This document shows positions 1,659 to 2,171 of a DNA stretch of 7,341 nt, in pieces. Position 1 is the stretch's first letter. Every line of letters begins with the position of its first letter. This DNA is from a virus. Its lineage: Duplodnaviria > Heunggongvirae > Uroviricota > Caudoviricetes. The notes beneath the pieces are model-generated. The model was not told the DNA's origin. It saw only the letters and a list, made by a program, of their open reading frames with translations, and did no database searches. A program made the translations under genes and the position numbers. The DNA lies in IMG/VR virus record IMGVR_UViG_2654587792_000035, positions 1 to 7,341 of that record. One strand, given 5' to 3'.

Positions 1659-1868
1659 ATGCGTGAAATAAATGAAGATCGCGTAATCCGTGAGGATGAA
1701 TGTCGTAAGTTAACTGGAGTGTGTCGCACTACACGCTACGAACTGGAGAAAAAAGGGAGCTTTCCGTCTCGCCGTAATCTTGGTGGGCGTTCTGTAGGTT
1801 GGCTGCTGTCCGAGGTTATGGAATGGGTTAAAAGCCGGGATCGCATTAATTCAGGTAAGGCAGCGTAA
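1659..1868 (+). CDS. alpA: AlpA-family phage transcriptional regulator / excisionase-like HTH protein (69 aa)
   Basis: In-frame ATG at 1659 inside track ORF 1572..1868, with AGG 7 nt upstream. Product MREINEDRVIREDECRKLTGVCRTTRYELEKKGSFPSRRNLGGRSVGWLLSEVMEWVKSR matches the AlpA/Xis-type winged HTH pattern (KxTG...R.T.Y......FP....LG.RSVGW...E..EW). The upstream extension to 1572 (GTG start) was rejected for lack of a plausible RBS and atypical length. Confidence 0.85.
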   Translation: MREINEDRVIREDECRKLTGVCRTTRYELEKKGSFPSRRNLGGRSVGWLLSEVMEWVKSRDRINSGKAA

Positions 1869-1880
1869 AGGGGAGCATAT

Positions 1881-1915
1881 GACATATAAAACAAAGACGA
1901 CCGGGGGCGGTCGCC
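1881..1915 (-). terminator. Rho-independent terminator for the leftward (- strand) transcript, lying between the convergent alpA and RHH-operon genes
   Basis: On the - strand RNA: GGCGACCG-CCCC-CGGUCGUC (8-bp stem including one G-U pair, 4-nt loop) followed by UUUGUUUUAUAUGUC. On the + strand the same hairpin has an A-C mismatch and no U-tract, so it is not expected to terminate alpA read-through. Confidence 0.5.
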
Positions 1916-1982
1916 AATGGATACACACTAAACTTGAACGCATCACCAACAATGCCACATTTGCGGCTGGTGGGCAATGTGA

Positions 1983-2171
1983 TCAGTCAGATTTGGTTCG
2001 TTCCAAGGTTTGCAACGAGAGCTTTTTCCTGTGCTCTTTAAGGAATTTCTCAAGAGCAAAAGCACATGGCGCGAATCTTTCTGATTCATGCTCTATCTTT
2101 CTGCGCCGTCTTTTCCGTGCCGGTGATAATGTTTTGGTCAATTCTTTATCGGTCATTGTGTTGTCCTGCAT
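1983..2171 (-). CDS. Hypothetical small basic protein (62 aa), second gene of the leftward operon; low confidence
   Basis: ORF lies downstream of the RHH gene on the same strand and upstream of the - strand terminator. It contains an arginine/lysine run (ARKRRRRK), has a weak RBS and many rare codons (AGA, AGG, ATA, CGG). Could be a real accessory gene or a chance ORF. Confidence 0.25.
   Translation of the reverse strand: MQDNTMTDKELTKTLSPARKRRRRKIEHESERFAPCAFALEKFLKEHRKKLSLQTLERTKSD

Follow-up and report, generated by a model that had tools for sequence, protein, structure and literature searches.

How Gram-negative phage-inducible chromosomal islands (PICIs) stay silent, and how AlpA turns on a whole island, are questions raised by a locus in a 7,341-nucleotide stretch of DNA (hereafter the window; positions 1 to 7,341 of IMG/VR record IMGVR_UViG_2654587792_000035), in which the alpA gene of such an island faces a leftward operon composed of a ylcI/ynfO-family gene and a 62-aa open reading frame (ORF). 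AlpA is described in PMC6092414 and PMC11773190 as the helper-induced, self-activating master activator of Gram-negative PICIs. Between the two units lies a hairpin, and this hairpin sits within a conserved plus-strand ORF (c1487 in CFT073), a fact missed by a first-pass annotation of the window. The ORF, here called the bridge ORF, runs from alpA across the leftward operon towards an Icd-like gene, the first annotated gene of the rightward replication operon (Table 1). The reading that we favour as a whole, and hold to be fairly probable, is that of a one-way terminator inside the bridge ORF, with alpA transcription crossing it into the replication genes.

The hairpin was examined on both strands. 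The plus strand of 1896-1915 reads GACGACCGGGGGCGGTCGCC, and A1897 lies opposite C1914, which makes a mismatch in plus-strand RNA and a G.U pair in minus-strand RNA. Past the stem, the minus strand continues as TTTGTTTTAT (1895-1886), giving the terminator tail UUUGUUUUAU, while the plus strand continues as AATGGATACA (AAUGGAUACA). A terminator scan called 1896-1915 on the minus strand only (8 pairs, 6 of them G-C), and terminator-like sites in the region numbered 8, against 1.8 +/- 1.4 in shuffled sequence. Folding of 1869-1940 gave -17.1 kcal/mol on the minus strand (z = -3.25, with 1 of 200 shuffles folding equally well) and -10.5 kcal/mol on the plus strand (z = -0.62). The stem begins 68 nt past the stop codon (1983-1985) of the 62-aa ORF. 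The first-pass annotation had described alpA as converging on the 62-aa ORF and ylcI, with a hairpin between them that is a good intrinsic terminator for the leftward transcript alone. The layout was borne out by the family matches and by the coding sequences (CDSs) predicted by PGAP, and the one-sidedness by the scan, the fold z-scores, the G.U versus A.C pair and the restriction of the U-tract to the minus strand. On sequence criteria, 1896-1915 with its U-tract was thus confirmed as a predicted Rho-independent terminator of the ylcI and small-ORF operon, acting on the minus strand only.

Relatives of the terminator were collected by megablast and blastn against 5,426 complete E. coli genomes and by two pattern scans of IMG/VR, which returned more than 150 further instances; the E. 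coli and IMG/VR loci comprised 154 instances, corresponding to 49 distinct variants. When 35 distinct variants were aligned, the core stem of 7 bp was paired on the minus strand in 99.2% of cells, a count that is in part biased because the first scan pattern permitted only R/Y at two positions of the stem; loci collected independently of the stem displayed the same trend in strand asymmetry. Among the wobble cells, 13 were G.U or U.G on the minus strand (A.C on the plus strand) and 2 favoured the plus strand. One compensatory change from G-C to C-G was seen (GGCGACC/GGTCGCC versus GGCCACC/GGTGGCC), and the covariation support is modest, with just one pair changed on both sides. The loop is free to vary in length (5-9 nt across variants), the U-tract is kept with single-base variants only, and a T-rich plus-strand tail, as expected of a bidirectional terminator, was present in none of the variants. 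The same layout recurs in Yersinia, Photorhabdus, Edwardsiella and Serratia, where int-alpA(-ant/bro) converges on ylcI and the terminators are unrelated in sequence and oriented for ylcI only. Across 86 distinct junctions a terminator-like site was found on the ylcI strand in 76 and on the alpA strand in 7, which supports the view that the predicted unidirectionality of the terminator is conserved across genera.

In E. coli the terminator forms one end of a conserved module of about 100 bp. The module alone (query positions 87/89-191) was matched by distant blastn in many E. coli genomes, hundreds in all, often with dissimilar flanks. It always lies where int-alpA(-BRO/Ant), running rightward, meets the leftward ylcI unit, and its start coincides with the stop codon of whichever leftward gene comes last. 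A minus-strand frame (LPTSRKCGIVGDAFKFSVYPLATAPGRLCF..., 1846-1977) is open and hydrophobic in nearly all module variants and has neither an ATG nor a Shine-Dalgarno (SD) sequence; a stop codon closes it short of the hairpin in a few relatives (after ...FKFDLP).

On the plus strand, the bridge ORF crosses the hairpin itself (AAA ACA AAG ACG ACC GGG GGC GGT CGC CAA) and runs antisense to the 62-aa ORF, ylcI and the entire divergent promoter region. The motif of a stop codon, a G-rich SD, an ATG, two codons and AAA ACA AAG recurs after a wide range of alpA alleles. In the four other genera the intergenic DNA is not alignable with that of the window, and the frame there measures 855-1173 nt and starts on the stop codon of alpA or antA (TAATG, ATGA, ATGcaTAG). 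Thus either SD and ATG or a start/stop overlap with the upstream gene was present in every lineage examined, and because of this geometry the bridge ORF appears laid out for translation coupled with alpA.

The YlcI and Icd domains were placed by hidden Markov models in all fetched loci, which yielded 103 distinct, related versions of the region. The longest plus-strand frame spanned the whole antisense of ylcI in all 103, with a median length of 1020 nt, the other two frames having medians of 165 and 78 nt. In 82 versions it ran on through the Icd-like domain as far as that domain's stop codon, and in 15, the window included, it ended no more than 90 nt from the domain. In the window the bridge ORF is in a different frame from the Icd-like gene, so that the short Icd-like protein is not nested in it. 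A leader hairpin (Table 1), kept from E. coli to Serratia and Photorhabdus and not recognised by Rfam as C4 or isrK, carries a 1-nt loop difference (about 2662-2666) from our locus L003, and this difference puts the bridge ORF of the window out of the Icd frame.

Two null models were used to assess how often such a frame would be open by chance. When each YlcI protein was combined with E. coli codon usage, the median probability of an open antisense frame was 0.245; the frame was observed open, in the same phase, for all 52 distinct YlcI proteins. When the parts outside ylcI were dinucleotide-shuffled, the per-lineage probability of an open frame was 0.0000-0.20 for the left part and 0.017-0.085 for the right. 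Multiplied, the two nulls gave about 1e-3 to 1e-6 per lineage, in several lineages with unalignable intergenic DNA. A change of the hairpin loop from 6 to 7 nt was offset by the loss of 1 nt from the spacer, which restored the frame. Bridge translations were 41-62% identical between genera, versus about 65-84% for YlcI homologues, and the parts of the ORF upstream of ylcI were unalignable or unrelated between genera. Since the bridge translation diverges more than YlcI, it is the openness of the frame that is conserved and largely not the amino-acid sequence. These comparisons show, as far as sequence statistics can, that selection holds the bridge frame open.

The N-terminal part of the long ORF differs among islands. 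In EcCICFT073 (our locus L246, 7767-8140) and in locus L008 (2199-2500) it resembles a true Bro/Ant-type domain fused in frame, which fits the domain swapping of the 'Bro zone' described in PMC10111431. In L006, L022 and other loci in which the module follows a BRO-N gene, the open long frame reaches back to 49 nt 5' of the A-tract.

We then considered what becomes of alpA transcription beyond the hairpin. Apart from two weak scan hits, no site like a plus-strand intrinsic terminator was found from alpA to the Icd-like gene, and a region with more C than G after alpA was dropped as a distinct Rho-loading feature, with a GC skew of about 0. A published reporter bears on the same point. The primers of pJP1290, as listed in PMC6092414, map to L246 7128-7148 and 8181-8200, and the homologous hairpin lies at 8144-8163; because the insert ends at 8200 and the hairpin at 8163, the fusion point is 37 nt past the hairpin on the alpA strand. 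According to Fig. 6 of that paper, the pJP1290 reporter requires alpA (pJP1290 versus pJP1291, p = 0.0011) and is induced by the helpers lambda and phi80 (PMC6092414). As far as the published description goes, this suggests that AlpA-dependent transcripts cross the hairpin in EcCICFT073, and since a reporter beyond the hairpin is both AlpA-dependent and helper-induced, read-through would be the expected state. The first-pass annotation had also held that alpA transcription could pass the hairpin antisense to the leftward genes, and this proposal gained support from the one-way terminator, from the open frame with its SD and from the CFT073 reporter. By analogy, read-through would occur in the element of the window as well, and transcriptional interference with ylcI may accompany it, perhaps as the commitment switch for induction that the first-pass annotation suggested.

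The gene that such a transcript would oppose, ylcI, is a candidate regulator. Its homologues are 64-95% identical across the aligned set, which covers several enterobacterial genera. An AlphaFold2 monomer model (pLDDT 79.6) placed helices at 19-28, 35-54 and 59-97 after an extended segment, and the sequence pattern fits a strand-helix-helix arrangement with a long C-terminal helix. Sub-threshold matches to PF07704 (PSK_trans_fac, Rv0623-like transcription factor) were obtained for 15 of 21 homologues, and some relatives in UniRef are named 'Arc-like DNA binding domain'. YlcI is thus likely, from sequence and model, to be a ribbon-helix-helix (RHH) protein. Upstream of it, operator-like repeats, which include a 26-nt imperfect inverted repeat (2572-2597 / 2607-2632), overlap a promoter-like site ahead of the Icd-like gene, the -35 of which, CTTGA(C/A)G, is kept in four elements. 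Between islands the repeats differ in step with the N-terminus of YlcI and at the same places (e.g. GTGGGCCACAC, present twice in CFT073), and a repressor and its operators would be expected to change together in this way. On this circumstantial evidence, YlcI probably acts as a repressor of the internal promoter.

Taken together, these features would allow the following sequence of events. In a quiescent island, ylcI and the small ORF would be transcribed leftward as far as the terminator, which would keep leftward antisense transcription out of alpA and int, and YlcI would repress the internal promoter. A helper phage would then fire the alpA promoter, which AlpA would go on to amplify. Polymerase moving rightward would pass the hairpin, where it would meet no U-tract and where the region is being translated; ribosomes on the bridge ORF would cover the RNA up to the Icd-like start and block Rho-dependent termination, and the transcript would cross the leftward operon and the repressed internal promoter to enter the replication genes. 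Lying inside a rightward reading frame, the terminator would be one-way by necessity, and with ribosome cover reaching as far as the Icd-like start, transcription would arrive at the replication genes regardless of YlcI. As a side effect, ylcI expression would likely be depressed by head-on transcription, through polymerase collision and antisense pairing. The first three stages and the translation-covered read-through draw on anatomy, conservation, the CFT073 reporter and the precedent of P4; the shielding from Rho is what we infer, and the need for it follows from what is generally known of Rho.

The precedent of P4, a satellite phage, lies in its PLL-vis-eta/kil region. As related in PMC10111431 with reference to Forti et al. 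1999, transcripts of a constitutive promoter within eta end early via CI and seqA, in what is an immunity-specific termination, while translation of eta prevents termination, so that the upstream, activator-dependent late promoter reads into the downstream genes. In the P4 genome we found vis (ORF88, an alpA homologue) followed by a 214-aa ORF (8168-8812) that overlaps the end of vis and has an Icd-like domain at its C-terminus (NF033153, 1.4e-20); this ORF is eta, with kil nested in it. A BLASTP comparison of the Icd-like protein of the window with the P4 'cI' ORF gave no match, and the family link came from NF033153 instead. The window resembles P4 in having an AlpA/Vis-family gene directly upstream of a long ORF, coupled to it in P4 and apparently so here, that leads to a primase gene; where this ORF in P4 contains an internal promoter for the replication operon, the window has a promoter-like site. 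The C-terminus of the long ORF is likewise Icd-like (Kil) in 82/103 relatives, whereas the ORF of the window is split from Icd. Rfam placed C4 (CI RNA) and isrK (seqA) within P4 eta; neither was matched in the window at E <= 1, nor in the PICIs L246, L003, L240 and L244 at the gathering score. In contrast to the CI RNA and seqA of P4, the PICIs carry in the same slot, on the opposite strand, ylcI with or without the small ORF and a one-way terminator of their own. The arrangement would thus represent the vis-eta design of P4, judged by sequence and analogy, with an antisense protein cassette replacing the CI RNA. From this precedent, the link between alpA and the genes beyond the hairpin would first of all be a bypass into the replication operon; this role is probably primary, and interference with the leftward genes secondary.

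The closest relatives of this arrangement are EcCICFT073 and EcCIEDL933, which share the order int, alpA, eta-like ORF, DUF4222, primase, SSB and have the antisense small ORF, ylcI and the hairpin module; published maps of EcCICFT073 show only the rightward c1487, and its hairpin variant is GGCCACC/GGTGGCC. In the immI region of P1/P7 (c4 RNA - icd - ant), downstream expression depends on events at icd, according to PMC8198154. There too an Icd-family ORF heads the operon, but control is by the c4 antisense RNA, and an AlpA gene, an antisense protein gene and an embedded terminator are absent. Blocked icd translation reportedly leads to premature termination before ant in this system, a finding ascribed to Biere et al. 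in 1992. Coliphage 186 offers a further parallel, its face-to-face lytic and lysogenic promoters forming a switch of convergent transcription. As in 186, opposed transcription units overlap at our locus and the firing of one could interfere with the other; unlike 186, the overlap covers whole genes and one of the units is insulated by a one-way terminator.

Other explanations of the locus were weighed against the read-through described above. The hairpin might be an ordinary terminator without any link, alpA transcripts dying soon through Rho or decay, the bridge being a shadow ORF of the kind now and then called by annotation pipelines, and replication starting only from the promoter-like site at 2581-2609. 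Convergent genes do often share one terminator, shadow ORFs opposite real genes are common, and the composition of the bridge translation is antisense-typical with no Pfam family match; the promoter-like site and operator-like repeats ahead of the Icd-like gene also fit. We nevertheless judge this distinctly unlikely, given a frame open in every version of the locus (the four genera with unalignable intergenic DNA among them), the small per-lineage chance of this, the start signals after the upstream gene, the compensated indel in the hairpin loop, the AlpA-dependent reporter past the hairpin and the precedent of P4. The bridge ORF may alternatively be a true protein gene, in which case a long Eta/Icd-like protein would be the selected product of one plain operon and the leftward cassette merely antisense to it. 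This we regard as improbable, although most relatives do fuse the frame to the Icd-like domain, the N-terminal part in CFT073 and L008 is like a real domain, the ORF is listed as a gene by PGAP and in the PICI literature, and Eta of P4 is presented in PMC10111431 as a nested long form of Kil. Some 15% of variants (window, Yersinia, Photorhabdus) break the fusion from a few to 90 nt before Icd and are open until then; divergence is faster in the part opposite ylcI than in YlcI itself, and N-terminal parts from different genera bear no relation to one another. This explanation is compatible with read-through and differs only on why the frame is kept.

Two further explanations were considered. 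The module at 1886-1986 could be a unit in its own right, either a 3'-UTR-derived Hfq-type small RNA (sRNA) or a small hydrophobic peptide (LPTS...FSVYPLATAPGRLCF, 1846-1977), for its borders are sharp wherever it recurs, independently of the genes around it; it begins, with an RN|AUU-like motif, at the leftward gene's stop codon; it has a 5' hairpin and terminator on the minus strand (z = -2.79); and it keeps the minus frame open in nearly all variants. There was no Rfam match even at E <= 1, the 5' hairpin shifts register between variants without covariation, no promoter was evident, and the peptide frame lacks ATG and SD and runs through the terminator. The Hfq CRAC data come from O157 Sakai, which lacks an island at cspD, and none of the listed peaks could be matched to the module. 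The terminator, the plus-strand ORF and Chi could jointly explain its conservation, and such a unit seems very unlikely. Three candidates were not upheld: an AgvB/AsxR-type prophage anti-sRNA, suggested by a CA-rich plus strand like GcvB targets (those anti-sRNAs lie 3' of PR' in lambdoid prophages, and there was no Rfam match); the hydrophobic LPTS... peptide as the leading explanation (low A content and the constraint of the opposite frame explain the openness); and a structured 5' hairpin of the module (varying pairing register, no covariation). It is barely credible that the leftward ORFs are artefacts and that the hairpin serves the structure or stability of plus-strand mRNA: the original CFT073 annotation and published PICI maps do show only the rightward c1487, but YlcI has strong curated-family matches and a good SD and is far better conserved than the opposite frame, the wobble pairs and U-tract fit the minus strand only, and the operator-like repeats change with the YlcI N-terminus.

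Several observations weigh against the translation-covered read-through that we prefer. The island of the reporter carries a different hairpin variant (GGCCACC/GGTGGCC) at about 430 nt from alpA, and the stretch of CFT073 that separates the two may contain a second AlpA-dependent promoter. Downstream of alpA the plus strand shows no marked C-richness and has no evident strong Rho-loading site. The bridge ORF of the window is unfused to Icd and stops 19 nt upstream of it, and L006, L022 and loci like them, in which BRO-N comes before the module, offer a TTG but lack an ATG close to the BRO-N stop. The sequences compared are related, so that 103/103 and 52/52 are not independent events. As to the fold of YlcI, a Foldseek search of the PDB returned no significant match and a PDB profile search no relevant one.

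Table 1. Features of the locus and of the surrounding window (coordinates of the window).
Feature	Position	Strand	Remarks
Terminator stem-loop of the leftward ylcI operon	1896-1915	-	8-bp stem, 6 G-C, one G.U; 4-nt loop
U-tract of the leftward terminator	1888-1895	-	minus strand UUUGUUUU; plus-strand codons AAA ACA AA(G)
Bridge ORF, 272 aa, eta-like/'long Icd-like'	1879-2697	+	stops (2695-2697) 19 nt 5' of the Icd-like ATG
Start signals of the bridge ORF	1869-1881	+	SD-like AGGGGAG 1869-1875; ATG 1879-1881, 10 nt past the alpA stop
Conserved module, about 100 bp	1886-1986 (to ~1990)		terminator, spacer, second minus-strand hairpin ~1940-1980, CTGGTGGGCAATGTGATCAG
Chi site GCTGGTGG inside the module	1966-1973	+	in most module variants; many relatives have a second copy just to the right
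alpA, AlpA-family activator/excisionase-type helix-turn-helix, 69 aa	1659-1868	+	PF05930 3.8e-16; phrog_2790; PGAP CDS in the identical D5 locus
62-aa ORF, small and basic, last gene of the leftward operon	1983-2171	-	phrog_21027 1.9e-14; PGAP CDS in D5 and CFT073
ylcI/ynfO-family gene, 101 aa, RHH-like, candidate repressor	2214-2519	-	NF041551 1.6e-17; phrog_6522 1e-63; AGGAG 9 nt 5' of ATG
Operator-like repeats	2538-2632		GTGTGTTTCA at 2541-2550 and 2586-2595; inverted copy 2609-2621
Promoter-like site in the bridge ORF	2581-2609	+	TTGACG, 17 nt, TAACAT; 9/12 consensus matches; in the place of P4 PLE
Leader hairpin (CGCCCCG ... CGGGGCG)	2648-2679	+	upstream of the Icd-like gene
Icd-like gene, 67 aa	2717-2920	+	NF033153 1.7e-19
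Tyrosine integrase gene (int)	1-1239		
Chi sites	885, 1966, 5032, 5913, 7096	+	
Chi sites	113, 4349, 5939	-	

As to the element itself, comparison with E. coli genomes revealed that the window matches, at 99.9-100% identity, a chromosomal island inserted beside cspD/yljB in E. coli D5. Its int, alpA and primase genes share one orientation at this dedicated attachment site, and the island carries capsid and packaging genes. After the Icd-like gene, the rightward operon comprises a hypothetical gene, DUF4222, a D5-type primase gene (3536-5353), an iteron-like region, SSB and a DUF1441/TerS-like gene. In the part of the D5 island inspected, tail or lysis genes were not seen. Because a prohead protease/major capsid fusion gene lies 3' of the matching segment in D5, the window is, judged by gene content, the regulatory part of a phage satellite, a capsid-forming PICI like EcCIEDL933 (bioRxiv 10.1101/2022.09.08.507074). 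A search of genome contigs with AlpA returned only two unrelated loci, both in metagenome-assembled genomes, and a phage collection gave 0 DNA matches and 1 protein match. For the 62-aa ORF, the start chosen by PGAP gives 57 aa (1983-2156), and in relatives the ORF is swapped for a 69-aa ORF or missing.

Other parts of the window deserve brief mention. The gap between int and alpA (1240-1658, about 420 bp) is A+T-rich, with a promoter-like site at 1350-1379, and is presumably the site of the AlpA- and helper-responsive alpA promoter. At 5370-5590, 3' of the primase gene, dense GGTGAACAG-type repeats in both orientations presumably represent the iterons of a replication origin. Chi sites number 8 in 7.3 kb, against an expectation of about 0.2 for a random 8-mer with both strands counted, and may protect linear or rolling-circle satellite DNA against RecBCD. 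A run of eight G (2899-2906) at the 3' end of the Icd-like gene, just 5' of the ATG of the next ORF (2913), is a possible slippage-prone tract, and relatives differ there.

The two strands of the locus have fared differently in databases. A protein search with the bridge ORF found 1,191 homologues of 292-474 aa, many named 'host cell division inhibitor Icd-like protein'. Its EcCICFT073 equivalent of 428 aa (L246 7767-9053) is c1487, given as 'icd-like, 428' in the supplement of PMC6092414. RefSeq shows, at the same CFT073 locus, an opposite-strand small ORF, ylcI and a short Icd-like gene. This split is general, as complete RefSeq genomes have ylcI, the small ORF and the short Icd-like gene, and many drafts, like the original CFT073 record, have one long Icd-like CDS on the other strand. 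The literature searched contained no mention of the strand overlap, of ylcI in PICIs or of the terminator, and PMC6092414 calls the global repressor of Gram-negative PICIs unclear.

EcCICFT073, EcCIEDL933-like elements and the window thus all carry a conserved antisense pair, an RHH-like gene and a one-way terminator inside an eta-like ORF, where published maps show one strand only and RefSeq mainly the other; annotators should be warned that both strands here are probably functional. A bolder proposal, which we put forward only tentatively as doubtful though conceivable, is that ylcI, antisense within the eta-like ORF, is the missing master repressor of Gram-negative PICIs, and that AlpA-driven, ribosome-shielded read-through both bypasses the repressed internal promoter and shuts off the repressor head-on, making an irreversible bistable switch in which the RNA immunity of P4 has been exchanged for an antisense protein cassette in the same slot. 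Should the circuit proposed here prove wrong, a well-documented conserved unidirectional terminator would remain. Should it hold, it would provide a concrete, testable induction circuit with a candidate repressor, and would tie the regulation of PICIs mechanistically to that of P4.

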